DNA of 63,615 nt, filler included, from Reclinomonas americana ATCC 50394 (GCA_048213135.1; 20 parts of 20 records of this genome joined end to end with filler, not necessarily neighbours in it), one strand, 5' to 3'; counted from the whole stretch's first letter, positions 7,579 to 63,153 are shown. Notes: generated by a model not told the origin, from the letters alone. Numbers and translations: made by a program.

Positions 7579-10500
7579 TTTTCATATTTGTTCGTCTCCA
7601 TCTTTCCACTCACAGTCTCATTCGGCAGTTCTTCTCATCCAGCTGCTCTCCTTTCTTTTTATCACTTGTATCTTTACTTGCATTTCGCTGCTTCTCGATA
7701 CACCACCTCCTCTCTCTCTCTATATATATCTCTCTCTCGCGTTATTCTGCTTGTTCTTCTTCACCATTCCACTCTTTCACGTCTTCGTCAGATCTTTCTC
7801 TTGGACTGCATCTCTTCTCCTCCTTTCACCCTTCACCTTTGCTGTCCCGCTCCCTCCACCCTCCCTTCTCTTCTCCAGCCCTCACCTTTCCCCCTCCCCC
7901 TTTCTCACCCTTCCCCCTTCTCCCTTGTTGCAGACCAACAACAACAACCCGTGGTATGGACTGGCGGCGACAATGCCGAGATTTTTGTGTGGAGCGTGCA
8001 CTCGAAGGAGCTGATGCACCAGCTGGAGCCACCGGCGCACGGCTCCATCCCCGCCGGCGGGGCGCTGACGCCGGGGAGCGGGCGGTCGGCGATTCGCGCG
8101 CTGGCTGCCTACCGCACCGACGGGACCGACTCGTCGGAGCAATACATTGTGTACAGTATGGATGAGCGCTCGGTGCTGGTGTCGTGGAATGCGAGGGTGC
8201 GTGTAAGGGGAGGAGGGGGAATTGTGCTTGGCTGCTGACTTGCGTTGTGGCGCAGATTTTGCAAGTGAACACGGTGGACATGCGTATGCATCGGCGCGAG
8301 TCGACAATGGCCACACTCGCCGCCACGCAGCATCACGTGTTTTTGGGAATGGACACGCTCACCTGTCGAACGACGGAGGTGAGCAAGCGTGCAGAGGGGG
8401 TAGGGAGGCGTGTACGTTTCTCATTTTCTTTGCGCAGTCTGGTATCCGGTCGCTGGCATTCGCAGTGACAGCCTCCAAGCGGTACATCAACACGCTGCAG
8501 GAGGAGAGTCGCGCGCTGAAGGACGACAACAAGCTGCTGCGCACGGAGCCGATTGTGAGTTGACGAGCCCTTGTCTTCGCTCCCTTTCTCTCCCCCCTTC
8601 ACTTTACATCCCCCCTTTCGTCTTCCCCCTTCGTCTTCCCCCCTTGTCCTCCCCCTCTTTCCCCCTCGTTCCCCCTCGTTCCCCCCTTGTCTTCCCCCCT
8701 TGTCTCCCCCCTTGTCTTCCCCCTCTGTCTTCCCCGTTGTCTTCCCCCTTGCACTTCCCCCTTGCACTTCCCCCATCTCTTCCCCCGTTGTCTTCCCCCT
8801 CTGTCTTCCCCTCTGTCTTCCCCCTCTGTCTTCCCCTCTGTCTTCCCCTCTGTCTTCCCCTCTTTCCCCCTCTTTCCNNNNNNNNNNNNNNNNNNNNNNN
8901 NNNNNNNNNNNNNNNNNNNNNTTAATTAATTAANNNNNNNNNNNNNNNNNNNNNNNNNNNNNNNNNNNNNNNNNNNNATTGAAGAGAGAGTATGGACATC
9001 TCCGACAGCTGACCAGGCTTGCGCACAGCTTCTCGCAACAAGTGATGGAGACGATGATTGAGCAACTGCCGAGTGCTGTCGAGGGGCATGGCGTCGATAT
9101 TGACATGGGGGGCGTAGATTACGTGGTGAGTGATCGTTCGTCTGGTGACAAGGGCCTTCGCTGGCTCATATTTCATCGCAGCATGGCGTTGATGACGACG
9201 TGCAAACGTCGCATGCTCGCGCTGACTCGACGGATTACCTGATGATGGTGTCGGAGCTGCAGCGGGATGACAAGTTTGTGGATTTTGTGATGGAGTTGGT
9301 AAGTGGCGTGGGGGAAAGGTGGAAGGATGGAAAGGGAGGGAGGGGCATGAAGAGAAGGAGAGTGAGTGAATCAGGAAGCCACGAGAGAAACACTCGTTCA
9401 TCTGTTCTTGCACTCTCCTTCTCTCTCTGCATCTTTCTCTTCGTTCCTCTTTTCGATCTTTCCCTTCGTTCCTCTTTTCGATTTTTTCCCTTCGTTCCTA
9501 TTTTCGATCTTTCCCTTCGTTCCTCACTGCGTTCCTCTCTTTGTTCCTCTCTCCGTTCCTCTCTCTTCAGTCTCTCTCTCCGTTCCTCTCTCCGTTCCTC
9601 TCTCCGTTCCTCTCTCCGTTCCTCTCTTCGTTCCTCTCTCCGTTCCTCTCTTTGTTCCTCACTGCGTTCCTCTCTTCGTTCCTCTATTCGTTCCTCTCTT
9701 CGTTCCTCTATTCGTTCCTCTCTTCGTTCCTCTCTTTGTTCCTCTCTTCGTTCCTCTCTTCGTTCCTCTCTTTGTTCCTCTCTTCGTTCCTCTCTTCGTT
9801 CCTCTCTTCGTTCCTCTCTTCGTTCCTCTCTTCGTTCCTCTCTTTGTTCCTCACTGCGTTCCTCTCTCCGTTCCTCACTGCGTTCCTCTCTCCGTTCCTC
9901 ACTGCGTTCCTCTCTCCGTTCCTCACTGCGTTCCTCTCTTTGTTCCTCACTGCGTTCCTCTCTCCGTTCCTCACTGCGTTCCTCTCTTCGTTCCTCACTG
10001 CGTTCCTCTCTTCGTTCCTCACTGCGTTCCTCTCTTCGTTCCTCACTGCGTTCCTCTCTTCGTTCCTCACTGCGTTCCTCTCTTCGTTCCTCTCTCTCTC
10101 TCTCGCGTTCTTTATCTCACTCTCTCTCGCTCTCTTGCTCTTTCTCGCTCTCGCTCTCTTGCTCTTTCTCGCTCTCGCTCTCTCTCGCTCTCGCTCTCTC
10201 TCGCTCTCGCTCTCTCTCGCTCTCGCTCTCTCTCGCTCTCGCTCTCTCTCCATATGTGTCTCCTTCTGTGATTCTCCTGTTCCCTCAAGCCACCGACCAT
10301 TTCGAGTGAGATCGAGGAAAGCAAAAGTACATGGGAGTTCAGGAATCGAGCTTGATGACATCAGCGTTTCTCTCACTCCTGTCCCATCGATCTTTCTCGT
10401 CTCTCGTCACTCACCGACGCTTGCCACAGAAACAATGCGTCCCTGAGGCCGAGCGTCCCGAATACCTCGATGCTTGCACACAGCTGCTTCGCTCGGACGA

Positions 10501-12598: not shown

Positions 12599-13311
12599 GG
12601 GGGAGGGTAAGGGAGAAGGGGGAAGGAGGAAAGGGTGAATGTATGGTGTGATTTTTGTTTGCAATTGATGAGGGGGAATAAGGGTGGAAGGGAGGGTTTC
12701 TTCGCAGGCAGAGCAGAGTGGTGCCCCTTTCATGTGCAAGAGAGGCCAGTGTGATGTTGGAATGATGAATGGACAAGCTCTCCTCTATTCTCCAACAATG
12801 ATGGTGGGTCAACTGAGACCATTTCTTCGCAAGCAGAGCAGACGATGCCTTTCTCTGAGAGCCCAGTGTGATGTCGTGAACGATCAGTGATCCTGCTCCT
12901 CTGAGAACTTCTTGACGGTCTCTCGACGTTTCATCTTGTTCGCCAATGTTTCAACACGCTCATGTCTCAGTGTACATGCGAGCACATGCCTCTCTTCGTG
13001 CGACACTTTATTCTGTCTTGTGAGCCTGCATGCACACCGACGAAGTCATGTCCCACGACTGTCTGACAGAGTGTGATGGGACCTGTGATTTGCTGCTGCT
13101 GTTGAGCAGAAGTGAGCTTGTGTTCCCTGTTCTGCTCTGTGTCACTGTCATTCCCACTGCGTGTGCTTGCAAAGAGAGAGAAAGGAAGGAGAGAGAGTTG
13201 CTGAATTTCTCCGCCATCTTATTGTGACAGAGAGAGAGAGAGAGAGCGTGTTATTCCCCTGTGCATCTGTCAGTGCTGTTGTTGTTGTTCTTCTTGTTGT
13301 GACGCATCATC

Positions 13312-16300
13312 ATGGCGAGCGGGAGTGGAGTGCCGCGTGAGTTGCGTGTCTCTCTTTGTGTTGTTGTCAGATGCATCATCATCATTACTCACATTGTGTG
13401 TGATTCGTTCCTTGTCACTCTCCCCCCCTCCTCTCCTATCGTGCAGTCATCATCACGATGCTGGCGATGAGGAATGCATGATTCGCCTTGCCAAGGCCCT
13501 GTCTCGTCCATGCACCCGCGCTCTGCAGTCCAAACTCGAGCAAGTGCTGCCGGTGTTTCTCGATTCGTATCCCGGTGTGAATCATGTGGCCGAGTGGTGC
13601 AAGGCGCCGAGTGAGCGTGATGTGCGGTGAGTGTGTGTGGGGAAGGATGTGGAGCACACGATGGCAAGATGGAGATGGGAGATGTGAATGTGAGAGAGAA
13701 GAGAACGATTGCCACGAGCAAGCGGCAGCTGGTGACGCACTTGTCATCCCTTTCTCCCCATTCTCGCACTCTTCATTGTCTCACACACAACTCCGCATTC
13801 TATCCCTGATGAATGCCTCCACTTTCTTGTCACACACATCTCCCTCACTCACCAGCATCCTCTCATTCTTTGTGCCCTTCCCCACATGCAGCACTATGCC
13901 GGACGGAGTGGACATGTGTGTTCAGTTGAGCGAGACGGAGCAGCAGACGGTGCGCGAGTGGCGTCAGGGAGGCCAGCTGCACGACTGCAGCTCGTTTGAC
14001 GCGATGCTGTGCTGCTCGATCTTGCTGCTGGCGGGTCATCGAGAGCATCCGAGAGACGAGCCGGATCGTCTGATTCCAGCTGGCGATGTGGTACGTGTGT
14101 GTGAATGAGATGGAAGGAGGAGGAGTGTGATCTCTGTCTTTGTGTGATTGTGTCTCTCACTCCCTCATTGTTCACAGCGCAATTCAATTGAGCGACTGAG
14201 GGTGGTGTTTGAGCAGGCGAGTCCTGCCCGAGCTCGTGCACTCTTTGTGCCTCTGCTCGGTGCCGGAGGAGGAGAGGGCGAGTTACATCGGCTTGTGCGG
14301 CAACTGCAGATTGGCAGGGATGTGGAGGAGGAATTGGCGGTGCAGCTGAACGAGGCTCGTGATGGTGAGTGGAGGGAGAGAGATGGCTTGCGTTTGCGTG
14401 AATGATATGATCGAAGGTGGAAGCTGATGCTGTATTGGTTGTGTGAGAATATAGGTGCACTGAGTCAAGCAGACCTGGCATCGATGGCGGCCAATGTGGA
14501 GCAAGTTGAGTGGATCTGCGAGAATGCGGTGGCTTGCAGATATTGTTGTTTCTCACTTGCTTGTGGCTGGTCAGATGCGAATGGAGATTCAGGCAACGAT
14601 TCGTGCGGAGATGGAAAGTGTGCATCAGCGGCTTGACACAATGAGCATCTCTGCGTCATCTCCCTCAGTCGCTGGTGTGTTCCATGATGGACATGCAATG
14701 CATGTGCATATCTAAGCTCACACCCACTCCTCTCCGTACCACACAGCACCAGTCAGCAGTCTCCCATGCACGACACCGCTCGTTGCCCGCACCGTCAATC
14801 CAGTGACCACATTTCGCTTCCCAAGTCGGCGTGCACTGGCCGCCTCACTTGCCACGCGCGTTGTGGATGCTGTGGAAGGTTGGGTGCTCCTTCTCTTTCT
14901 CCCTTCCTTCCTTCTCCACATTCGTGTGTCTCATCATGTTGCCGGTGGCGGATGATTCCTGCGCAGCACATCAGCCAATCATGGTGGTGCTGACGGGCGA
15001 TGGTGGCACTGGCAAGTCGTTCCTGGCCGAGCTGCTGGTGACCGAGTTGCAGGCCACTCGTCGATGGAAGGGGTCGGCCGTGTCGGTGGAGATGCGCGGT
15101 CATGTGGGTGATGCGAGGGAGCATGTGACGGTGTGTGCTGAGTAACATGCATTTTGTCTTTCATGCTGCGTTATCTCTTCTGCTTTCATGCTGACTCTCT
15201 CTCTCTCTGTTGCCACATTCTGCAGGCGCAGAGTGCTCTGGGCGAGTGTCTGCGTGCCTTTGTGACGGCACAGATGCGAGTGGATGAAGTGGAAGGACGG
15301 AGGATGGCCAGCCAGGTGGATGCGCTGCTGGCGAGTGGCGAGGTGGAGCCAGCACGTCGTCTCCTGCGACAGTTGATGCATGCATCGAGTGGAGTGATCG
15401 TGCTGGACAATGTGGGATCGGCGGAGCAAGTGAGGAGGGTTGTTCAATGTGCTGATGAGGGTTCGTTTCAGGAGAGAGAATTCTCATTCTTGCTCGTATG
15501 TTGGATCCTGACATTGATGTGTAACATCTATGTGTGCCTGCTCAGGTGGAATGGTGGCACCGATTGTGGTGGTGACGAGTCGATATGGACAAGTGGCGGA
15601 TGAGATTCGTGACTTGATAATGCACGAAGCGGAGGTGGAGTGTGTGCGAGTGGAGAATGTGGAGAGCGAGGACATTGTGCAACTGGTCGAGGAGCGACTG
15701 GTTCACAAGGCATCGGAAGATGTGCGACGACGGATTGTGGAGGCACTGGAGAGTGGACAGCAGGAGAAGAGTGCACTGCGAGTGAGTGCTTGTGTTGGGT
15801 GAGTGCTTTGAGTGAGTATGAGTTGCGGATGAGAAGACTCACTCTCTTTTCTCCCTCTCTTCTTGATCATACAGCTGGTTGCTGTCACAGCCAGCAGTTG
15901 AGCTGGCGGGAGCGCGACTGGAAGAGGTGCTAAGTGGCATTGGTGGCGATGCACTGTCACAGCTGCTGGAACGCAATGTGATGTCACAGACAGCAGCAGC
16001 ACGTCGTCTGTTGGTGCTGATCACGGCGTGCAAGGAACTTGGCTTGCCAGTGACAGTGGCACTTGCGCGAGTGGCTCTGGGTGTGTTGCGAGTGATTCCT
16101 GATATGACCACCTCGGGGAGTGTGGATGAAGATGAAGAGGCGGCAAGTCGGCTGGTGGAGTTGGGTCAGTGTGTGCGCCGATTACGACTGCATGGGCTGG
16201 CATGGGAAAGGCGACGGCGTGCACCCGAGGTGGTGGGTGAGCGACTGCAGTTCGACGAGATGAGTCAGGAGGAGGAGCGACGTGTGAATGCAAGGCGTGA

Positions 16301-17708
16301 TGAGTTGGTGGGTGGTGGTGCAAATGGAGTGGAGGATGTGCTGGAGGGTCTGTGTTTGTCGAATCTGGTGACGGTGGGTGTCAGTGGCAGCGTGGACAGT
16401 GTGGCTCGTGTGCTGTGTGGTAAGCAACTGAGAGAGAGTGATGTGGCGATGGAGTATCGAGTGCACGACGAGATTGCTGGGTGGATTGTGAGACGGTGTG
16501 AAGATGCAGTGTCACGGGCGCAGCGACTGATTGTGCGACTGGTGTATTGTGTGCTGAATGGCATCGACTTGCAGAATGACAGTGACGGTGTGTTGTTGGT
16601 GTCGCGTGACGTGCTCGGTGTTCTGCACACAGTGTGGCGACGGTTGGGTGAGGATGACGGCATGTGGGCGAGTGATGTGGTTGGTATGAATGGGCTGCTA
16701 GTGCAGTTTGAAGCAGTCGAGTGGATTGGTGAGCAGTGTGTTTATCAAAAACTGCCGACAGTTGGATTCGATACGGCTGCTGCCTCGTCGCTTGTGCGAC
16801 GTGTGACGGAGTGTAGAGATCGTGGAGGTAGTGATGTTGAATTGAGTCCTGTGCGACGACGGTTTGCGATTGCGGTGGCAAAGTGTCAAGCTTGGTTGCT
16901 TGACTTTCTTTGTTGTCAGTGGGATGAACGTGAAGCTGCGTGGCAACAGGCGTGGCGTTTGTGCGAGGAGTGGGAGAGGGATGACAGTGGCGAGATGACT
17001 GTGCTTGATACGGTGGACGCACTGCGATGCTTGATGTGGTTTGCTTATCATTCAGGCAACTTGCCACTGCTGGTGCAGTGTCATGTGCGGCAGTGTGCGA
17101 CACTGGGTGAGCATCATCCGGACTCTCTGACGACTCTGCATTATCAAGCATTTCATCACTTCTATCGACCGGATTATGCTGATGCGGAGGCGCTCTGGCG
17201 ACGGTGCTGGGAGATGCGACGACTTGGTCTTGGATCTGAGCATCCTGACACATTGGCCTCCATGGGCGGTGTTGCTGCATGTATCCTTGATGGTAGTCGT
17301 CTTGAGGAGAGAATTCAACTTGTACGAGAATGCTTGCAGCTGAAGCGAGCATCGCTGGGAGATCGACATCCGAGCACTCTCACGTCGATGAATAATCTTG
17401 CTTATTCTCTCGCGCAACAAAAAACGTCAGAATCACTGGCAGAAGCTGTTGATTTGTTCCGTCAGTGTTTGGCGGGACGACGTGAGGTACTGGGTGACAG
17501 GCACGAAAGCACATTGTTGACAATGTACAACTACGGTTACCTGCTCATGGAGCAACGACGATGGGACGAGGCTGAGGCACTGCTGGTGGAGTGTGTGGAT
17601 GGCATGCGAGCGGTGCTTGGTGAAGATTATCCGAAGACAGTGCAGGCTATTAAGTGGTTGGAGGAGTGTCGACGACGTGCAAAAAAGGGAAAATGTGTGT
17701 TGCTGTGA
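13312..17708 (+). CDS. NLR-like STAND protein, copy A: N-terminal domain, NB-ARC-type P-loop NTPase, TPR repeats, C-terminal CaaX
   Basis: Walker A VVLTGDGGTGKS (~14984-15020), Walker B VIVLDNV..AEQVR (~15394-15435), sensor-1-like VVVTSR (~15566). Kinesin-light-chain-type TPR units LGEHHPDSLTTL, LGSEHPDTLASM, LGDRHPSTLTSMNNLA, LGDRHESTLLTMYNYG and LGEDYPKT lie in a ~1.8-kb terminal exon ending RRRAKKGKCVLL*. ATG 13312 and the exon structure are shared with copy B. Confidence 0.82.
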
Positions 17709-18195
17709 ACATTGTGAATGAACCTGCTCCCCCTCCCCTTGTTCCCATTGCCAAGAAGCATCCGAGTCGACTTCACCGGAATCCCGGAACTGGCATTCCG
17801 CGTCCTGCAGAGATTATCGCAACAATCCGTCGCTGCACGACCGCGCGCATACTCTCTCTCCNNNNNNNNNNNNNNNNNNNNNNNNNNNNNNNNNNNNNNN
17901 NNNNNTTAATTAATTAANNNNNNNNNNNNNNNNNNNNNNNNNNNNNNNNNNNNNNNNNNNNGCGTTTTCAATCTCAGTTTGCCTTATTTAGTTGTCAGTT
18001 GTCTCTGTTCTTCCCTCTCGCTCTCTTTCTCTTGCTCTCGATTGTTTCTCTCCACTCTCTCCGTTCTCGTCTCTGTTTCTTTCTCTTTCCCATATTCTCT
18101 CTCGCTTTCTTTCTCTTTTTTGCTCTCTCTCCTCTCATCTGTCACTCTCTCTCATCCCTCTCCATTTACCTCACTCACCCTCCTTCGCATCCCAG

Positions 18196-21100
18196 GCGCC
18201 GACTTTGAGCCCTTCATCAGCGAGACGAACGCCGCCCTCAACGCCATCGAGAGCGCCTCGAAGCCGACCGTCGCCGCTCTGGAGACCATGGCCTTCGGTT
18301 CGTGTGCTCGCTCCCTCCGTCATTTCCCCTGCACGATTCTCACCTTTCCCTCCAACAGGTGGTGGCCTCGAGCTCGCCATGTCGTGCCACGCCCGCATCG
18401 CCACTCCGAACACGAACGTCGGCTTGCCGGAGCTGCAGCTGGGCCTGATCCCCGGTTCGTCCCCCTTATGTCCTCTCCCCACTACCGTACTTTTCTGTCC
18501 CTCCTCCGTCTCCTTATTCTCACCTCCCCTCCTCCTCTTCTCACCTCCCCTTCTCCTCATTCCTCCTCCTCCCCCCACTGCCGTACTTCTTCGTCCCTCA
18601 TTCCCCAACCTCACACCCCCTTCTCATTATTTTCACCTCCCCTACTCCTTTTCTCACCTCCTGTTCTCCTTTTTCTCACCTCCCCTTCTCCTTTCGTCAC
18701 CTCCCTTTCTCCTTTTTTTCACCTCCTCTTCTCCTAATTCTCACATCCCCTCCTCCTTATTCTCACCTCCCCTTCTCCTTCTCCTCCCCTCACCTCCCTT
18801 TCTCCTTTTACTCCCCTTCTCTCCTTCCCCTCACTCCCCCCCTTTCCCTTTATAGGCTTCGGCGGCACACAACGCCTCCCCCGCCTGGTGGGCGTGCAAA
18901 AGGCGCTGGAGATGATGCTGTTGTCGCAGCACGTCAAGGCCGCCGACGCGCACAAGATTGGCCTGGTCGACGCCATCACCCGCGACTCGGCCTCCCTGGT
19001 CGCCGACGCCGCCAAGCTGGCGCTCGACATTGCCGCCGGCCGTGTGGCCCGCCGCGAGTCGCTGACGTACACGCGCAAGCTGGAGGCCGCCGGAGTGGTG
19101 TCCATGATTTGCACGGAGGGTGAGTGGGGGGAAAGGGGAAGGGAGGGAGGAAGGGGATGGAAGGGAGAAGGGGATGCTGACGTGAGCTTGCAGCGCGTCG
19201 TCGTGCGGAGAAGGAGAACCCGAATGTGACGCACACGGTCGAGTGCATCAATGTGACGGAGGCGGGAGCCACGCGCGGATCCAAGGCTGGATTGCAAGCT
19301 GTTGCGTAAAAGTACAAGGGATTGTGTTATCCTCTCTCGCTTCCCCTCCGTGTCTCTGTGCCTCCCTCCATGATACTGCATCTCCCTCAGTATCTCTGCT
19401 CCTTTTTCCGTGTCCCTGCGCCTCCCTCCGTGTCGCTGCGCCTCCCTCCGTGTCGCTGCGCCGCCCTCCGTGTCGCTGCGCCTCCCCCCGTGTCGCTGCG
19501 CCTCCCTCTGTGTCCCCGCGCCTCCCTCTGTGTCCCTGCGCCTCCCTCTGTGTCCCTGCGCCTCCCTCCGTGTCCCTGCGCCTCCCTCCGTGTCGCTGCG
19601 CCTCCCCTGTTGTCGCTGCGCCTCCCTAGTTTTCGCTGCGCCTCCCTCCGTGTCGCTGCGCCTCTTTCCGTGTCGCTGCGCCTCTTTCCGTGTCGCTGCG
19701 CCTCTTTCCGTGTCGCTGCGCCTCTTTCCGTGTCGCTGCGCCTCTTTCCGTGTCGCTGCGCCTCTTTCCGTGTCGCTGCGCCTCCCTCTCGTGTCGCTGC
19801 GCCTCTTTCCGTGTCGCTGCGCCTCCCTCTCGTGTCGCTGCGCCTCCCTCTCGTGTCGCTGCGCCTCCCTCTCGTGTCGCTGCGCCTCCCTCTCGTGTCG
19901 CTGCGCCTCCCTCTCGTGTCGCTGCGCCTCCCTCTNNNNNNNNNNNNNNNNNNNNNNNNNNNNNNNNNNNNNNNNNNNNTTAATTAATTAANNNNNNNNN
20001 NNNNNNNNNNNNNNNNNNNNNNNNNNNNNNNNNNNCTCTCCTCCTCTCTCTCTCTCTCTCTCTCCTCTCTCTCTCCTCTCTCTCCTCTCTCTCTCTCTCC
20101 TCCTCTCTCTCTCTCCTCCTCTCTCTCTCCTTCCCTCCTCTCTCTCTCTCACGATTCGTGCGAGCTTATCAACTAATATTCTTCGTTCGTGCAGGCCGTG
20201 CTCGAGAAGCCGACGCTGAAGCAGGACGTGTTTGTGGAGCTGGAGCGCCTGTGCTCGCCGACGTGCGTGCTGGCCTCCAACACCAGCACCATCAGTCTGG
20301 ATGTGATTGCCGCCAAGACGCGCTCGGCGGATCGCATTGTGGGTCTCCACTTCTTCAGGTGAGAGGGGAAAGGGGTGTATAGGGGAGGAATAGGGGAAGG
20401 GGTGTAAAGGGGAAGGGAATAGGAAAGGGAAAGGGAAGAGGGACAGCGATAAGAGGAAGAATGACTGTGAGGGAAGCATTGGCAGCGAGAGCGAGAGGAT
20501 GGATAGCAAGAAAACAGATAGACTGCGATCAGAAGGATGGGCAGGGAAGAGAAAGGTTGGGCTGCGAAGAGAGAGGTGGATCGCGAGGAAAGGGGCTATC
20601 TGCACAGCAGAGAATTGTCAGCGAAGAGAAAATGCTCTGCGAAGAGAGAGGGATAGAATTCGAGGGTAGCAGGTTGGACAAAAGATGTCTTCTGCTCCTG
20701 CACTCACCCTTTTCCCTTTCCCCCGTTTCCCTTTCCCCTCTTCGCGCAGCCCCGCCCACGTCATGCCCCTGCTGGAGATTGTCCGCTCGGACCACACCTC
20801 CGCGCAGGTGCTGGTCGACTCGATCGCCTTTGCCAAGACCATTGGCAAGACGCCGGTGGTGGTCGGCAACTGCGCCGGTTTTGCCGTCAACCGCATCTTC
20901 TTCCCGTACTCGAGGTTTGTCGAAAGGGGGAAGGGAGGGGAAGGGAAGGGGAAGAGTGGGACAAGGAGAGACAGAGAGCGAGAGAATGAGTGTGGAGTGA
21001 GTGAGAGTGTAAGCGGGTGAGGGTTGTTGAGGGAGGGGATGAGTGAGGAAGAAAGAGTGACACAGAGGAAAAGAGAAGGAAAGGAAGGGAGAACGAGAGA

Positions 21101-24100
21101 AAGAAGGACAATGTGTGAGAGTGCGAGAATGAGGGGGTATTATAAATTGAGAGCAAGACGCTAAGAGTGAGAGAGCGAGTGTGCGAGAGAGTGAGAGAGA
21201 GACAGAGCGAGCGACAGTTTGAGAGAAAGAGTGCAAGCATGAGTGTAATTGAGAGAGTGAGAGATAGGATTAGCTTGAAAGAGAGAGTTGGAGAGAGAGT
21301 CTGTGTTTGCGTGTGTGCGAGTTGTTAGCGAAGTGAGCGTGTGAGAGCTTTGCAGTAAGTGCTTGCTGGAATGTGGATTCTGTGTGTGTTTGCTATTGCG
21401 TGTTGGAAGAGTGTATGAGTGTGTGAGTGAGTGTGATTGAGTGCGAAACAGAGGTCAATGCACATTCTACGAATGACTCCTCTCTTGCTCACTTTGTGTC
21501 GCAGCTCGTGCGCCTTCCTCACCGACCGCGGAGTGGAGCCGTACCGCATTGATGCCATTGTGAATGCTTTCGGCATGCCGCAGGGAGTTGCGTTGTTCAT
21601 GGAGACTTTAGTTGTGAGCAGTGCTGACTACCTTGCGCTGCAGCCGTACCGCATGGGCGACATGGCTGGCATTGACATTTTGTACCACGCTCATTGCTTG
21701 ATGGTGAGATGTGAAGCAAATCAAGCATGGTTGATGGTTGCACTCACATTTGTGCACAGGCTGAGGCGTACGGTGCTCGTGCTTACCCGATCCACGCGTC
21801 GGCGCTGATGGTCAAGGACAATCGTCTCGGTTTGTGGTACTCAATGCCAGATGTCTCTGTCCCGTGTCCTCACTCTTCTCTGTTCCCAGGCCAAAAGTCG
21901 GGCGCCGGCTATTACAAGCACGAGAAGGGTGTGCGCGAGGCACCGGCGGATGCGCAGGGCGTGGCGCGCTTCTTGCAGGAGGCTCGTCGTCTGTCGGGCA
22001 ACCCGGAGGTTCGTCTCAAGAGAAGGGGTTGCAATGGCTATTTCCTTACACTCTCCTGTTCGCAGCCGGTGAACTTCACCGACCAGGACATTCTGGAGAT
22101 GGTGTGGTTCAGCGTCATCAACGAGGCCTGCCGTGTGCTGGATGAAGGCATTTGCGTGCGCTCGAGTGACATTGATGTGGCGTCGGTGAGGAGAATAAGG
22201 GAAAGGGAGATCAAGGAAAGAGAGATTGAGTGAAAGGAAAGCAAGGAGGGAATAGGAATGAGAGTGGAAGCAGAGGGCACATGCGGAGTCAGAGAAGACG
22301 CAAAAGATTGGGGAGGGCGAGACGAAGAGGAGAATCAGATGTGAAGTGTTTGTAGGAACGCAATTTGCCCGATGTATTTTGTGTCGCATCACGCACTCAC
22401 GCTCTCTGTTCACTGCAGGTCATGGGCATGGGCTTCCCGTCGTGGCGGTACGTTTGATTATCGATTTGGGTTGTATGTCGTCGTTGTGTGTCTGCCTCTC
22501 CTTGCTCTGTTTGATGGACTGTCGTCTTTGTTTCGATTGTAGTCCTTTTTCCTCTGCTCATACTTGTGCAGCTTGCGTTATCACCGCTCTTGTTTCACGT
22601 CGCCTTGCGCTCAATCCCTGAATTTGTCCTTGTACTTCTTCGCATTGCCCTCTTCCCTTGAATATCCACTTGCTTGTGCTTCTTGCAAACGAAGTTCAAT
22701 ATGCACGGTGACCTTGAACCCTCTCATTTCGGCTCACTCCTTTTTGTTGCCTCGTCTTCTCTGTCCCTCTATTGCCCTTTCCTTCTCGTTATCCCCCTTC
22801 TCCTTCTCTCCCTTTCTTCTCCTTCCCTTCTCCTCACTCCCCCTTTCCCGTGTTGCAGCGGCGGCCTCATCAAGTACGCCGACTCCATCGGCGCCCGCTA
22901 CATCCGCCAGAAGCTCGACGAGTGGCACAACCGCTTCGGCGTCGAGCTCTTCCGCCCGTCGCCCTACCTGGCGCAGCACGCCGACAAGAACGTGCCGCTC
23001 AGCGTCATCCACCCGGGCGACGACGACTCCGACGTTGTGATTGTGGCCTCGTGCCGCACGGCCGTGTGCCGTGCCTTCCGCGGTGGATTCAAGGTTTTGT
23101 GGGGGGCGAAGGGGTTAAGGGGGTTTGGGGAAGGTTCGCTGACGATGAATTGGCAGGACACCGCGCCGGACGTCATGCTCCGTCACGTGTTCGAGGACCT
23201 GCTGCGTCGTGCGCCGCAGGTGAAGCCGGCTGACATTGGTGATATTACTGTTGGTTGTGTGCTGCCGCCGCAGGTGAGAATTATTTCACAAAGGCCATCT
23301 CTCTCTTTCTTGCTCCCCCTTTCGCTCTCCCCCACTCGCTCTCCCCCACTCGCTNNNNNNNNNNNNNNNNNNNNNNNNNNNNNNNNNNNNNNNNNNNNTT
23401 AATTAATTAANNNNNNNNNNNNNNNNNNNNNNNNNNNNNNNNNNNNNNNNNNNNCCCCTCTCCTTCCTTCTCTCGCTCCCCCCTCTCCTTCCTTCTCTCC
23501 TTCCCCCTCTCCTTCCCCCTCTCGCTCCTCCTCTCCCTTGTCGCTTCCCCCTCACCTCTCCCTTTTCCCCCCTTTTCCCTTCTCACACTTTCCCCTTCCC
23601 CCTCTGCAGGGTGGCGTGATCGACGTCCGTGTGGCCGGCCTCATGGCGGGCATCCCGGAGACCGTGCCCGTGCGCACCATCAACCGCTTCTGCTCGTCGG
23701 GCCTGCAGGCCATTGCCGATGTGGCATCGGCGATTCAGGCGGGGTACTACGATATTGGCATTGCGGCGGGAATGGAGAGCATGTCCAGGGTGAGTGAAGG
23801 GAAAGGGGAAGGGAGAAAGAGGAGAATTGTAGAAGGGAAGGGGAAGAAAAGGAGAAGTAGAGTGAGGGAAAAGAGATGGAGAGAGAGAAGGAGGAGAGAA
23901 GGAGAAGCAGAGTGAGCGATAGAGTTGGAGAGAGAAGTGGCGGGTGATACGATAATGCTCTCAATGCGAGAAGGAAAATTTCGATCAAGACCGAGCAAGG
24001 AAGGAAGAGTGAGTAAGAGGAAGGAAGATCGGGAGGGGAAGGGGGAGAGAGAAAGAGCGCGCTGTGGCAAATTTAGGGAGAGTGGCAAAGAAAGTGACTG

Positions 24101-27730: not shown

Positions 27731-48662
<20,932 letters not shown>

Positions 48663-49406: not shown

Positions 49407-49548
49407 AGAGAGACATAACAACGAGGAGGAGAGAGAGGAGAGAAGAGANNNNNNNNNNNNNNNNNNNNNNNNNNNNNNNNNNNNNNNNNNNNTTAATTAA
49501 TTAANNNNNNNNNNNNNNNNNNNNNNNNNNNNNNNNNNNNNNNNNNNN

Positions 49549-50143
49549 TCTCCTCAACTCGGCCACGAGCGCGTCACGCTCCCTCACCTGCCGCGTCAAG
49601 TCCTCCACCGTCGGCTCCGCCGCCGCCGCCTGTGCCCCCACCACCACCACCCGCTCCAGGGCCTCCACCATGGCCGCCAATCCCCGCTGCCGCGCCATCT
49701 CCACCGCCGTCTTGCCGTCGCGCCCGCGCATCGCCAGCAGGTCGGGAATGGCGGTGGCCAGCAGCACGGCCACCTCCTGCTGGTTCCAGAACACGGCATT
49801 GTGCAGCGCCGTCCACCCCTCCTCGTCAATCATGCGCGCCGCCTCGGGCGAGCAGCGACGCGGGTCGGCCAGCAGCCAGCGCACGGCCTCCACCTGTCCG
49901 TTGCCGGCGGCGCCCATTAGCGGTGTCCACCCGTTGTAGGTCACGTGCTGCGCCAGCTCCGTGCCGCACTCGGTGTGCCAGAGGAGCTCGAGGATGGGCA
50001 CGTGGCCGGAGGCGGCGGCGTAGTAAAAGGCCGAGCCGCCGCTGGCGTCCATCTCCTCGGGTTGGAGGAGGGTGCGGGCGGAGGAGGTGAGTTGGCGGAG
50101 GGTGGTGAGGTCGTTGAGTTGGGCGAGTTCCCAGGCGGGGGCT
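49549..50143 (-). CDS. Ankyrin-repeat exon (~4 repeats) followed by coiled coil; partial gene
   Basis: GGSAFYYAAASGHVPILELL, GWTPLMGAAGNGQVEAVRWLL, GWTALHNAVFWNQQEVAVLL, DGKTAVEMARQRG; polypyrimidine tract and TAG acceptor directly upstream. Confidence 0.9.
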
Positions 50144-51053
50144 CTACAGAGAGGCAAAGGGAATAAGGGGAAGGGTGGAGAGGGGGAAGGGTGGGGAAGG
50201 GGAAGGGAGATTAGGGAAAGGGGAGATGGGAAAGGGGAGAAGGGAAGGGGGAAAGGGGGAAGGTCTTTCTTTCTTGTCTTCTTTGAGATGTGAGTAAGTG
50301 TGTGTGAGAGAGAGACAGACAGACAGAGAAAGAGAAAGAGAGAAAGAGAGAAAGAGCGAGAGAGAGATAGAGAGAGAAAGAAAGAAAGGAATGTGAGTCG
50401 TGAGGAGGATGAAGGGAGAGGAATGGAGGTTCTTTCTTGTCTTCTTCTTTGAAATGAGAAGTGGAGTGAGTGAGTGAGTGAGAGCGAGAGAGAAAGGAAT
50501 TGGGGTGGAGAAAAGGATGGAGGAAGGGAAATTGAGTTTCTTTCTTGTCCTTCCTTCTGTGAAATGTGAACGGGAGTGAATGAGTGAGTGAGAGAGAAGG
50601 GGAATCGAGTTTCTTTCTTTCCTTCCTTCATTGGAGTGAGAGAGAGATAGAGAGTCAGAGGCTGTGAGAACGACTACAAGGAGGATGCCAAGAGCGGAAG
50701 CTTGAGGACGGGACTGGCGACAATAAGAAAGAGAGGGATGCGGCAATTCCGGTTGTCGCATTCTTGAATAAACGAAGAGTGGACAGCAGAGAGGGAGAGG
50801 CGATCTTTCTGTTTCTGGTTATTCGAGAGAAATAGAAAAGGAATGATAATGTGGGCAGAGGGAAGGCGAGAGGGAGCACGATAACCTTTCCAATGCCTTC
50901 CACGCACAGCAGTATGAAGACGTGAAGTGATTGAGCTCAAGAGTGTGTGAGAGAGAGGGAAAGAGAGAGAGAAAGAAAGCAAGAGGAATGAGGGCGGAGA
51001 CGAGGGTGCAGTGGTGTATCTTTCAGGCCATACTCTTCTGCAACGTTAGGAGA

Positions 51054-58361: not shown

Positions 58362-58842
58362 TAGGAAAGGGAAGTGGAATGAAGGGGAGCATAGTTGGTG
58401 TGATGTCTTGGGTCGATGATGGATGGTGAGAAGACAAACAAGCTTGCTGGTGTTTGTATCAGCGAGTTTTTTCGCAATGACAACGCTCGTCACGGGAGTG
58501 CAGTTTCGTGTTGCGACTTCCCCCTTTGCCGCGCAGACTAAAGGATGGCAAGTACATCTCCTCGGTGACGAAGCACGTAAGAATTCGTGTCCCACGATTG
58601 CCTTATGTGACGGGCCGTGACGGATTTGCTGCTGCTGCTTTGAGCAGAAGTGAGCTTGTGTGTTCTCTGCTGCTCTCTGTCAGCGTCATTCCTCGCTTCG
58701 TGTGTGTGCAAGGGAGAAAGGAGATAAGGAGGAAGAAGGAGAGAGAGTTGTTGAATTTCTCCGCTTCTTATTGTGCCAGAGAGAGCGTGTCATTCTATCT
58801 GTCAGTGTGCTTTTGTTGTTCTTCTTGTTGTGCCGCATCATC

Positions 58843-61800
58843 ATGGCGAGTGGGAGTGGAGTGCCGCGTGAGTTGCGTGTCTCTCTCTCATTGTGTTGTT
58901 GTCAGATGCATCATCGTCATCATTCTCACATTGTGTGATTAGTTCTCTCTCTCCTTTCTCGCGCAGTCATCATCACGATGGTGTTCCTGGCGATGAAGAA
59001 TGCGCAATCCGTCTTGTCAAGGGACTGTCTCGTCCGTGCACCCGCGCTCTGCAATCCAAACTTGAGCAAGTGCTGCCGGCGTTTCTCGATTCGTATCCTG
59101 GTGTGAATTATGTCGATGAGTGGTGCAAGCCGCCGAGTGAGCGTGATGTGCGGTGAGTGTATGTGGGGAAAGGGGAAGCACGCGATGGCAAGATGCAGAT
59201 GGAAGAGAAGAGAAAAGATTGCCACAAGCAGTGGCAGCTGGTGATGCACAGGTTATCCCTGTCTCCCCATTCTCACCCTCTTCTTTGTCTCACCACACGA
59301 TTCCAAATTTTATCCCAATGAACTCCTCTCTTTCTTGTCACACACATTCCCTCACTCACCACCATCCTCATTTCTTTGTCGCCCTTCCCCACATGCAGCA
59401 CCATGCCAGTCGGATTGGACATGTGTGCCCAGTTGAACGAGAAGGAGCGGCAGACGGTGCGCGAATGGCGTCAGCGAGGCCAGCTGCATGACTGCAGTTC
59501 GTTTGATGCGATGCTGTGCTGTTCGATCTTGCTGCTGGCGGGTCATCGAGAGCACCCGAGAGACGAGCCGGATCGTCTGATTCCCGCGGGCGATGTGGTG
59601 CGTGTGTGGGAATGAGAAGGGGATGGGAAGAAGGAAGAGTGGGATCTCTCTCTCTCTCTCTCTCTGCGTGATTGTGTCTCTCACTCTTTGATTGTCACAG
59701 CGCAATGCAATTGAGCGACTGCGGGAGGTGTTTGAGCAAGCGAGTCCCGCACGAGCTCGTGCACTCTTTGTGCCTCTGCTTGGTGACGGAGGAGGAGGAG
59801 AGGGCGAACTGCATCAGCTTGTGCGACGACTGCAGATTGGCAGGGATGTGGAGGAGGAATTGGTGGTGCAGCTGAACGAGGCTCGTGATGGTGAGTGGGA
59901 TGAGAGAGATGGCTGGTGCTTGTGTGTCTGGATGATTTGGTTGAATGTGGAAGCTGATGCTGTCTTGATTGTGTGTGAATGCAGGTGCACTGAGTGAAGC
60001 AGACCACGCATCGATAGCGGCCAATGTGGAGCAAGTTGTGTGGATTTGCATGAGGGGGCGGGCAATTGAAGATGGCTCATTGTTTCTCACTTTCTTGTGA
60101 TGGATCAGATGCGGATGGAAATGCACCATCGTCTTGACGCAGTGACCATCTCGCCCTCTTCTCCCTCAGCTGCTGGTGTGTTCCATGATAGACCTGCATT
60201 CGAATGTGCATTGCTGTGCTCACTCCTCTCTGTGCCACACAGCACCAGACAGCAGTCGCCCACCCAAGACACCTCTCATCACCCGCACCGTCAATCCAGT
60301 GACCACATTCCGCTTCCCGAGTCGACGTGCACTGGCTTCGTCACTCGCCGGGCGCATTGTGGATGCTTTGGAAGGTTGGATGTTCCTTCTCTTCCTCCCT
60401 TCCTTCTTCCACATTCATGTGTCTCATCGTGTTGTCTGGTGCTGATGATTCTTGCGCAGCACACCGTCCAATCATGGTGGTGCTGACGGGCGATGGTGGC
60501 ACTGGCAAGTCGTTCCTTGCTGAGCTGCTGGTGACTGAGTTGCTGGCGACTCGTCGATGGAAGGGATCAGCCATGTCGGTGGAGATGCGTGGTCATGTGG
60601 GTGATGCGAGGGAGCATGTGAAGGTGTGTTGAGGAACATGCATGTTTTCTTTCATGATGCTGTCATTCCGACTCTTTCTCCATGCCAAATGCTGCAGGCG
60701 GAGAGTGCTCTGGGTGAGTGTCTGCGTGCCTTTGTGACGGCGCAGATGCGAGTGGATGAAGTGGAGGGACGAATGATGGCGGGCCAGGTGGATGCTCTGC
60801 TGGCGAGTGGCGAGGTGGAGCCAGCACGTCGTCTTCTGCGACAGTTGATGCATGCATCGAGTGGAGTGATGGTGCTGGACAATGTGGGATCATCGGAGCA
60901 AGTGAGGAGTGTTGTTCAGTGTGCTGATGAGGGTGCGTGTGTCGTGAGTGAGAATTCTCATACTTGCTTGGATGTTGGATCCTGACTTGATGTGCATCAT
61001 GTGCGTGCCTTTGTGCAGGTGGCCTGGTGGCACCGATTGTTGTGGTGACCAGTCGATATGAACGAGTGGCAGATGAGATTCGGGACTCGATGATGCACGA
61101 GGCGGAGGTGGAGTGTGTGCGATTGGAGAATGTGGAGAACGAGGACATTGTGCAGCTGGTGGAGGAGCGACTACGCCACAAGGTGTCAGGAGATGTGCGA
61201 CGACGAATTGTGGAGGCGCTGGAGAGTGGACAGCAGGAGAAGAGTGCACTGCGAGTGAGTGCTTGTGTTGGGTGAGTGATTGTGATCGTGTGAGTGGCGC
61301 GGATTAGAAGACTCACTCTTCTCTCTTTCTCTTCTTCATCATGCAGCTGGTTGCTGTCACGGTCAGCAGCACAGCTGGTGGGCGCGCGACTGGAGGAAGT
61401 GCTGAGTGGCATTGGTGGCGATGCGCTGTCGCAGCTGCTGGAACGGAATGTGATGTCGCAGACAGCAGCAGCGCGTCGTCTGTTGGTGCTGATCACGGCG
61501 TGCAAGGAGCTCGGCGTGCCGGTGACAGTGGCACTTGCGCGAGTAGCTCTGGGTGTGTTGCGAGTGATACCCGATGTGGCGGTGGTTGTGGATGGTGATG
61601 GTGATGCAGATGAGGAGGCGGCAAGTCGACTGGTGGAGTTGGGTCAATGTGCGCGTCGACTGCGACTGCATGAGCTGGCGCAGGAGAGGCGATGGCGTGC
61701 ACCCGAGGTGGTGGGTGAGCGACTGCAGTGTGACGAGATGAGTGTGGTAGAGGAGCAGCGAATGCGTGCGCGGCGTGATGAGTTGGTGGGTGTTGGTGGT

Positions 61801-63153
61801 AACGAAGTGGAGGATGTGCTAGAGGGTCTGTGTATGTCGAATCTGGTGACGGTCGGTGCCAGTGGCTGCATGGACAGTGTTGCGCGTGTGTTGTGCGGTG
61901 AGCAAGTGAGGGAGAGCAACGTGGCGTTGGAGTATCGAGTGCACGATGAGATTGCTGCGTGGATTGTGGGACGGTGTGGGGATGCTGTGTCACGGACGCA
62001 GCAACTGATCGTGCGACTGGTGTGTTGTGTACTGAGTGGCATCGATCGAAATGACAGTGACGGTGCGCTGCTGGTGTCGCGTGACTTGCTTGGTGTGCTA
62101 CACTCGGTGTGGCGACGGTTGGGTGACGATGATGGTATGTGGACGAGAGATGGTGTTGGTGTGAATGGACTGCTGGTGCAGTGTCGGGCTGTGGAGTGGA
62201 TTGGTGAGCAGTGTGTCGCAGGAAGGCTGCCGTCGGTCGGTTTCGACGACGCAAAGGCCTCCTCACTCGTGCGACGCGTTACGGAGTGTGTACAACATGC
62301 AGATGGTGATGTTGAAATGGGTTCAGTGCGACGACGGATTGCCGTTGTGGTGGCAAAGAGTCAAGCGTGGTTCTTTGAGCTGCTTCGTCAGGCTGGTGAT
62401 TGCAGTGCTGCGTGGCGGCAGGCATGGCGCTTGATGGAGCGGGAGAGAGATGGCAGTGGCGAGATGACTGTGTTGGATGGGATGGACGCATTCCGTTGCT
62501 TGATGTGGTTTGCTTACGACTCAAGCAACTTGCCTCTGCTGGTGCATTGTCATAAGCGGCAGTGTGCAGCGTTGGGTGAGAGTCATCCAGACTCGCTGGC
62601 GACTCTGCATTGGCAGGGCATGCACCTAAACGCTGAGGCACTCTTCCGACAGTGCTGGGAGATGCGCCGACGGGTTCTTGGAGCTGAGCATCCAGACACG
62701 TTGGCGTCACTGAGTAATGTCGCCCATTGCATTGATGATGACAGTCGTCTGGAGGAGGTGATTCAACTGAACAGCGAATGCTTGCAGCTGACAAGAGCAT
62801 CACTGGGTGATCGGCATCCAGACACTCTCGCTTCGATGAACAATCTCGCTGGTTCTCTCACCAATCGAGGCACACCAGAATCACTAGCCGAAGCTGCTGA
62901 TATGTACCGTCAGTGCTTGGCGGGAGAACGAGAATTGTTGGGTGACAGACATGAGTACACTCTGAAGACGATGTACAACCACGGCATTGTGCTCACGAAG
63001 CAGCAGCAATGGGCCGAGGCAGAGGCGCTGCTGATGGAGTGTGCGGATAGTCGGCGAGCGGTGTTGGGTGAAGATGATCCGAAGACTGTGAGTGCCATCA
63101 AGTGTTTGGAGGAGTGTCGACGACGTGCAAGACTGGCCGACGCGTTGTTGTGA
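58843..63153 (+). CDS. NLR-like STAND protein, copy B (paralogue of 13312-17708), no CaaX
   Basis: Same exon structure, identical Walker A (GDGGTGKS), Walker B VMVLDNV, VVVTSR and TPR repeats; ends RRRARLADALL*. Nucleotide similarity to copy A includes introns and ~220 bp upstream (58620 vs 13085). Confidence 0.82.

Follow-up and report, generated by a model that had tools for sequence, protein, structure and literature searches.

We analyzed a 63,615-base stretch of DNA from Reclinomonas americana ATCC 50394 (GCA_048213135.1; hereafter the window, meaning the whole stretch at its full length), a eukaryotic scaffold of ~53% G+C that carries two paralogous genes on its plus strand. Each is predicted to encode an N-terminal domain, a P-loop nucleoside triphosphatase (NTPase) and C-terminal tetratricopeptide repeats (TPRs). 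An earlier note on this DNA had read this layout as that of a pair of immune receptors resembling NOD-like receptors (NLRs; NOD stands for nucleotide-binding oligomerization domain), and we found the layout in both copies. The genes and their parts are as follows.

13042..13311 (+): conserved upstream region of copy 1, a promoter or 5′ untranslated region candidate; matches 58581-58842 (80.0%, 250 columns)
13312..17708 (+): copy 1 gene; 10 exons, predicted product of 1076 amino acids (aa)
13312-13340, 13447-13626, 13892-14090, 14178-14364, 14455-14504, 14575-14674, 14967-15130, 15226-15460, 15546-15798, 15875-17708 (+): predicted exons of copy 1
13312..14674 (+): N-terminal domain of copy 1, exons 1-6, ~aa 1-245, family unassigned; 87% identical to copy 2
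14996..15019 (+): Walker A, GDGGTGKS, exon 7 of copy 1; 60489-60512 in copy 2
15400..15414 (+): Walker B, VLDNV (hhhhDN), exon 8 of copy 1; 60872-60886 in copy 2; aligns with VLDdA..QVr of the NB-ARC reference
15569..15583 (+): sensor 1, VVTSR, exon 9 of copy 1; 61042-61056 in copy 2; aligns with VTSR of the NB-ARC reference
16455..16469 (+): YRVHD, a candidate MHD-type histidine motif closing the putative winged helix; 61933-61947 in copy 2; invariant between copies
16575..17708 (+): more diverged 3′ block of copy 1, linker plus TPRs; ~62050 to 63153 in copy 2
16998..17705 (+): TPR array of copy 1, ~5-6 units of 42 aa; the TPRs of copy 2 start at ~62467
58581..58842 (+): conserved upstream region of copy 2, counterpart of 13042-13311
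58843..63153 (+): copy 2 gene; 10 exons, predicted product of 1059 aa, boundaries transferred from copy 1
58843-58871, 58967-59152, 59399-59597, 59701-59890, 59985-60034, 60109-60175, 60460-60623, 60698-60932, 61019-61271, 61347-63153 (+): predicted exons of copy 2

The gene models were built by seeking GT-AG pairs that keep the frame open from the ATGs at 13312 and 58843, and were mapped to copy 2 through the alignment. In both copies, all nine introns (70-292 nt) have GT-AG ends and occupy homologous positions, and the frames remain open across every exon join. Exon lengths differ in 4 of the 10 exons, always by multiples of 3. Exon 1 (29 nt, with the weak donor GTTGCG) is the least certain part of the predicted models. 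The encoded proteins are 80.9% identical. At the DNA level, blastn paired 13042-17682 with 58581-63130 in a single alignment (81.1% identity, 4716 columns), and a third copy is absent from the window, as all 14 tblastn hits obtained with copy 1 fell inside these two loci. The pair had been described as full-length, same-strand paralogues with Walker A, LDNV, VVTSR and C-terminal TPRs, and both copies indeed have intact frames and carry these motifs.

Similarity was also said to run through the short introns and ~220 bp upstream. Introns are 82.3% identical between the copies and exons 84.7%, in agreement with the first point. The upstream similarity is likewise real, but its extent differs: the alignment begins 270 bp before the ATG (80.0% identity across 250 aligned columns, with 32 further columns being gaps), and farther upstream identity drops to 45.7%, the chance level. 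At the other end, similarity stops at the stop codon, and the next 52 columns are 34.6% identical. The proposed duplication at the DNA level holds, since the copies have both their introns and the promoter-proximal 270 bp in common. The shared termini that the earlier note suggested looking for did not appear, with no inverted repeats of at least 25 nt and no direct repeats of at least 30 nt flanking either copy, and a transposon-borne duplication finds no support in the sequence. The reported contrast between GT-rich genes (G 34%, T 25%) and C-rich neighbors (C 27-40% in the flanks) is genuine, but it comes from comparing the coding strand with CT-rich flanks of low complexity and not from a foreign origin; the G+C of both genes is similar to that of the rest of the window.

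The ratio of nonsynonymous to synonymous divergence (dN/dS) between the copies is 0.30 overall, with 0.22 in the N-terminal domain, 0.26 in the NTPase module, 0.36 in the linker and 0.30 in the TPRs. These values therefore show that both genes have been constrained by purifying selection since they split.

Divergence is unevenly distributed along the pair, as judged from a comparison of two sequences only. Across codons 1-690, 63 of 333 fourfold-degenerate sites differ (18.9%), near the values of the introns (17.7%) and the upstream region (20%), as against 54 of 134 (40.3%) across codons 691-1076 (Fisher p = 3.2e-6). The step is sharp and lies at ~codon 700, just past the YRVHD motif. Divergence over the 5′ 3.5 kb amounts to half of that over the 3′ 1.1 kb, and dN is 0.06-0.07 in the 5′ part versus 0.20-0.21 in the 3′ part. 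Since the 3′ third is twice as diverged at fourfold-degenerate sites, the alignment shows the pair to be a mosaic whose 5′ and 3′ parts have different histories. Gene conversion may have homogenized the promoter, N-terminal domain and NOD part after an older duplication, or the sensor part may have been swapped with another family member. It is also possible that mutation rate or codon constraint is unequal between the blocks.

The definition of STAND (signal transduction ATPases with numerous domains) proteins given by Leipe et al. in 2004 reportedly comprises a Walker A motif, a Walker B motif with a second acid, a sensor 1 of TSR or TTR type, a helical domain with GxP followed by a winged helix, and C-terminal repeats. 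Both copies have a P-loop of the form GxxxxGK[ST], the sequence IVVVTSR 28 residues past Walker B as sensor 1, and TPRs as the C-terminal superstructure repeats. Pfam assigned the latter to TPR_10 (E = 2.9e-18 and 1.4e-24 in the two copies) and TPR_12 (E = 4.1e-21 and 9.1e-20), above the cut-offs, and a 126-nt DNA repeat within copy 2 gives the 42-aa period. The putative winged helix, the linker and all TPRs are encoded by one 1.8-kb exon. An AlphaFold model of this long last exon had a mean predicted local distance difference test (pLDDT) value of 56.5 and was confident in the TPR part only, which was closest to kinesin light chain (KLC); the fold search retrieved TPR proteins exclusively.

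Exons 7-10 together encode the NTPase domain, and the scans against Pfam, NCBIfam and PADLOC were run exon by exon on unspliced sequence. In these scans, Pfam NB-ARC (PF00931, cut-off 23.5 bits) gave no match at E up to 0.1 when the four exons were scanned singly. The Walker A exon matched AAA_16 (21.2 bits), NPHP3_N (17.0) and nSTAND3 (16.6) in Pfam, all below cut-off. NCBIfam and PADLOC added only generic P-loop and TPR matches. Exons 8 and 9 returned nothing meaningful when searched against PDB sequences, and phmmer with the spliced residues 1-860 found nothing significant among 44 fetched proteins.

We therefore describe the spliced domain by profile comparison. Reference sets were taken from four actinobacterial genomes, reached via a TIR-NB-ARC-TPR protein, and comprised 21 NB-ARC, 14 NACHT, 22 AAA_16 and 7 AAA sequences, each trimmed to begin 25 residues ahead of the P-loop and to end 420 residues (AAA: 260) past its start. 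The resulting profiles are home-made and actinobacterial only, with no eukaryotic reference set. In hidden Markov model (HMM) searches, the NTPases of copy 1 and copy 2 scored 19.9 and 24.5 bits with NB-ARC, 20.6 and 22.0 with NACHT, 0.3 and 2.6 with AAA_16, and 3.8 and 5.1 with AAA; the top score among 300 shuffles was 5.6 bits. With hhalign, the two-copy alignment matched NB-ARC best (97.0%, E = 1.1e-10, score 83.4, 360 columns, 24% identity), followed by NACHT (95.5%, E = 1.6e-8, score 67.6), AAA_16 (76.9%, score 46.1) and AAA (70.5%, score 42.4). Against the NB-ARC profile, 83.4 exceeds the scores of all 10 single NACHT sequences (maximum 64.3) and all 7 single AAA sequences (maximum 57.8). 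Single AAA sequences reach at most 57.8-60.0 on the NB-ARC and NACHT profiles, and the median for single NB-ARC sequences scored on NACHT is 71.0.

The alignment to the NB-ARC profile pairs the P-loop, then VEMRGH with vdL.G, VLDNVGSAEQVR with VLDdA...QVr, and VVTSR with VTSR. The order continues with CVGW..PAVELAGARL, a ~75-residue insertion, and EDVLEGLCLSNLV...YRVHDEI opposite LE.L..a.Ll...RYR.HDL; the conserved stretches VLDNV..EQVR and LEGL..NLV...YRVHDEI thus follow the NB-ARC order. A sub-alignment of aa 610-700 with reference positions 271-320 (LE.L..a.Ll ... RYR.HDL) gave E = 0.0059. On these home-made actinobacterial profiles, the STAND families score above the other P-loop families (83.4 for NB-ARC and 67.6 for NACHT versus 42.4 for AAA). 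These sequence comparisons support placing the NTPase in STAND. The earlier note had called it NB-ARC: the STAND grouping stands and NB-ARC is the best match, but the NB-ARC clade is favored and not proven, with NACHT slightly lower. We accordingly describe the domain as a divergent STAND NTPase that appears to lean toward NB-ARC.

Relatives in sequence databases were confined to the TPRs. A word-index search with the long exon against longer proteins gave 29 matches, all explained by TPRs (the best with 34% identity over 32% of the query), and the same search with long-exon residues 1-430 against proteins of near length gave none. A HMMER search of 1.84 billion representatives with the 427-aa pre-TPR region found 15 proteins at E ≤ 0.001, the best stretch of each lying in residues 375-426, the first TPR, and in a metagenome scan with residues 1-380 none of 438 pattern matches was confirmed. 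For the N-terminal domain, the three largest exons matched only two Pfam DUFs (E = 0.026-0.034) and one NCBIfam row (E = 0.22) in the Pfam, NCBIfam and PADLOC scans, and exon 3 had no usable match in Atlas. Downstream of the NTPase, the named Atlas clusters that scored best were WHD_MalT (0.90), a weak lead only. Thus the database searches gave no relatives for the N-terminal 245 aa, which six short exons encode, or for the 390-aa stretch that separates sensor 1 from the TPRs. The lineage may simply be unsampled there, as the window's own proteins did not appear in these search results either. Rfam found no family in the window.

Several results weigh against reading the pair as NB-ARC-type immune receptors. 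Walker B reads VIVLDN in one copy and VMVLDN in the other, with the Asp present and Asn in place of the second acid, and the GxP region, CVGW..PAVELAGARL, aligns with lCG.LPLAiRIagaRL and is not the canonical GLPL. No STAND model of Pfam, NCBIfam or PADLOC reached its cut-off on any single exon, and the Walker A exon gave only generic P-loop matches. The profile scores also overlap with those of other families: unrelated P-loop families cross-score to 23.8-25.0 bits, enclosing the query's 20-24.5 bits, so the HMM result alone indicates a P-loop NTPase with some STAND affinity. Scored with hhalign on the NB-ARC profile, single AAA_16 sequences have a median of 55.9 but reach as high as 99.7. 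A first test with six and four reference proteins placed NACHT/NPHP3 (48%, E = 1.8e-4) ahead of NB-ARC (28%, E = 6.1e-4). In the long-exon model, 335 of 610 residues have a pLDDT below 50, and the region from sensor 1 to the TPRs, with its putative winged helix, is modeled at low confidence. The database searches gave no relatives of the non-TPR parts and therefore no family-level support, the start codon and exon 1 are predictions from sequence, and dN/dS exceeds 1 in no domain.

The window contains 19 gaps, each of the form N44-TTAATTAATTAA-N44, 100 bp long and with a stop codon in each of the six frames (for example 17862-17961), which split it into 20 pieces of 1.4-10.8 kb. Several of the gaps we inspected sit in CT-rich or short-period low-complexity repeats. 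The two copies had been placed 45 kb apart; they are two separate loci, but the 45-kb figure is nominal only because 14 of the 19 gaps fall between them. A thiolase frame stays in register over the gap at 23355-23454 (residues ~21-89 before it, ~95-151 after), and for this reason the order of the pieces is probably real. A piece of an enoyl-CoA hydratase lies on the window piece preceding the thiolase piece. The spacers were first taken as joins of unrelated contigs, an idea dropped because the multifunctional protein (MFP)-thiolase region is collinear across two gaps.

We consider two functional paralogous genes that encode a tripartite STAND protein to be the best explanation of these data, and a probable one. 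The predicted protein consists of the ~245-aa N-terminal domain, an NB-ARC-like nucleotide-binding oligomerization module, a helical linker and 5-6 TPRs of the kinesin-light-chain type. By analogy with studied STAND and NLR proteins, the TPR arm would keep the ADP-bound NTPase closed, and a ligand on the TPRs would trigger nucleotide exchange and oligomerization. Oligomerization would in turn cluster the N-terminal domains and lead to signaling or cell killing. The Asn that replaces the second Walker B acid might slow hydrolysis, which is speculative. On the same analogy, an immune role as a non-self sensor would be the likeliest reading. The expanded lineage-specific defense family that the earlier note suggested would be a hypothetical one, of which the window shows two copies. 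More tentatively, the pair could be part of an NLR-like family restricted to one lineage, within a protist group not yet sampled, in which the 245-aa N-terminal domain would represent a new effector or signaling class and paralogues would exchange blocks, through conversion of the promoter, N-terminal domain and NOD or through a linker-TPR swap. Such block exchange would explain the twofold step in neutral divergence at ~codon 700; we hold this wider proposal to be possible and somewhat doubtful.

An NTPase of the NACHT or nephrocystin-3 kind would instead make the pair a scaffold or regulatory protein, for example an NPHP3-like one acting in cilia or trafficking, and not a non-self sensor. 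The Pfam matches to NPHP3_N and TPR_NPHP3 (25.8 bits) point in this direction, as do the near equality of NACHT and NB-ARC in both profile methods, the lead of NACHT/NPHP3 in the first small-set test and a dN/dS below 1 throughout. Both Pfam matches are nevertheless below their cut-offs (24.8 bits for NPHP3_N and 100 for TPR_NPHP3), and fish nephrocystin-3 was not listed by phmmer with the spliced residues 1-860 at E up to 10. Walker B with DN..EQVR, the LPLA...GARL stretch and YRVHD all track the NB-ARC reference consensus, and recent duplicates that diverge in their sensor part are less expected of a conserved scaffold. We therefore regard the scaffold as unlikely. Less likely again is a family acquired from bacteria, with introns gained later and an orphan look that stems from fast divergence after transfer. 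NB-ARC-TPR proteins are abundant in bacteria, and among the 29 TPR-level matches most of those with a name are bacterial. The bacterial FxSxx_TPR model is matched (E = 1.4e-21), though just by the TPRs and over its own TPR section, positions 542-726 of 830. The NTPase also aligns best to the actinobacterial NB-ARC profile, a one-sided result since the reference sets are all actinobacterial. Nine spliceosomal introns and a G+C like that of the rest of the window speak against such a transfer, identity to the bacterial NB-ARC profile is only 24%, and the 1.84 billion representatives yielded no bacterial sequence closely related to the non-TPR parts.

We give least credence to the idea that the two loci are not both working genes, one being an untranscribed relic or the pair an assembly artefact of diverged haplotypes placed on one scaffold. 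The assembly is fragmented (19 gaps in 63.6 kb), the gene models are built from genomic sequence, and similarity is confined exactly to the gene and the 270 bp upstream. However, both copies retain intact frames over 3.2 kb of coding sequence and nine pairs of splice sites, and a dN/dS of 0.30 denotes constraint since the split. The 81% DNA identity is far below the level usual between alleles, the flanks are unrelated (45.7% upstream, 34.6% downstream), and gene order over a gap holds for the thiolase gene. This makes an artefact or relic very improbable, and two functional paralogous genes for a STAND protein remain our preferred explanation.

The other genes and repeats in the window were recorded as side observations. 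An uninterrupted 138-aa frame at 22860-23273 (+), continuing at 23610-23786, matches two enzymes in turn: its start corresponds to the C-terminal end of the peroxisomal multifunctional enzyme (residues 669-715 of the 725 of AtMFP2), and the rest to the N-terminus of peroxisomal 3-ketoacyl-CoA thiolase (residues ~21-89). The MFP/thiolase piece had no match in a word-index search. It may belong to a fused MFP-thiolase gene, which would cover all beta-oxidation steps after the oxidase, or to two tightly abutting genes. On the minus strand, a gene at 31456-34457 contains CHB_HEX_C_1 / Fn3_assoc modules as repeats (two pieces gave E = 1.9e-12 and 4.8e-6), spaced by proline- and serine-rich low-complexity stretches; this domain is mostly bacterial. 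An ankyrin-repeat gene at 49504-50673 (-; Ank_2, E = 6.3e-28) and a RabGAP-TBC exon at 54190-54373 (+; E = 6.6e-14) are ordinary genes of the cell and have no relation to the pair. Long short-period repeat arrays at 9150-10310 and 18734-19987, in which several frames are open together (of the SLRSS... and REAQRHE... type), lie next to assembly gaps and probably represent minisatellites, not genes. Some 2 kb upstream of copy 2 is a 50-nt inverted repeat with 92% complementarity, whose arms (56327-56376 and 56679-56728) are separated by 302 nt.

To our knowledge, NLR-like STAND proteins have been sparsely described outside plants, animals and fungi, and we know of none with a tested function in a protist. 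In the brown alga Ectocarpus, the portion of Zambounis et al. (2012, PMC3341825) used here describes 24 NB-ARC-TPR loci, half of them clustered, as candidate receptors; in 13 of the 24, each exon encodes one 42-aa TPR and the exons shuffle. According to the same portion, these proteins were proposed as immune receptors from architecture and evolution alone. As far as that description goes, the present pair resembles the Ectocarpus family in its NTPase, putatively of NB-ARC type, its C-terminal TPRs of 42-aa period and its intron-rich genes. Unlike the family as described there, it carries all TPRs, the putative winged helix and the linker in a single 1.8-kb exon, and the Pfam NB-ARC match was not reproduced with exons scanned singly. 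Set beside that family, the present pair shows detectable similarity to database proteins in its TPRs only.

In fungi, the part of Dyrka et al. (2014, PMC4986451) considered here states that NB-ARC pairs preferentially with TPR, that many N-terminal domains are unannotated and that the repeats of many NLRs are >85% identical to each other. The present genes differ from the fungal NLRs of that account, as the sole within-gene pair of repeat units from our DNA repeat search is 70% identical. A solved example of such repeats is the KLC-like TPR structure of Podospora (4y6w). For Acanthamoeba castellanii, the section of Clarke et al. (2013, PMC4053784) drawn on lists a single NB-ARC-TPR gene with an InterPro disease-resistance signature as a candidate pattern-recognition receptor. 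The present pair is likened to it by that description and not by sequence: both would be NB-ARC-TPR proteins of a free-living protist with compact, intron-rich genes.

The actinobacterial TIR-NB-ARC-TPR 'FxSxx-COOH system' protein of Streptosporangium (P0013; NF040586) belongs to the set that gave the best NTPase profile match, and it has the same motif order. TPR_10 and TPR_12 are common to the present pair and the actinobacterial NB-ARC-TPR proteins. Unlike the latter, the present genes have nine introns, a ~75-aa insertion between GxP and YRVHD and another N-terminal domain, and the identity is 24%; their NF040586 match covers the TPR part only (76.7 bits versus a cut-off of 300). Animal NPHP3 shares with the pair a P-loop NTPase followed by kinesin-light-chain-type TPRs, and the weak Pfam matches to NPHP3_N and TPR_NPHP3 reflect the same likeness; both fell short of the family cut-offs, with the NTPase exons scanned singly. 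Unlike fish NPHP3 (P0015), the pair lacks the NPHP3 and NPHP3_hel domain matches (none to NPHP3_hel on the long exon) and shows no pairwise NTPase similarity. Because brown algae, Acanthamoeba, fungi and bacteria are already known to have NB-ARC-TPR proteins, the present pair would, on present evidence, be one more instance of a known architecture and not the sign of a new principle. As an intact, recently duplicated pair with an orphan N-terminal domain and a sensor part of different history, it provides a concrete and testable gene model.

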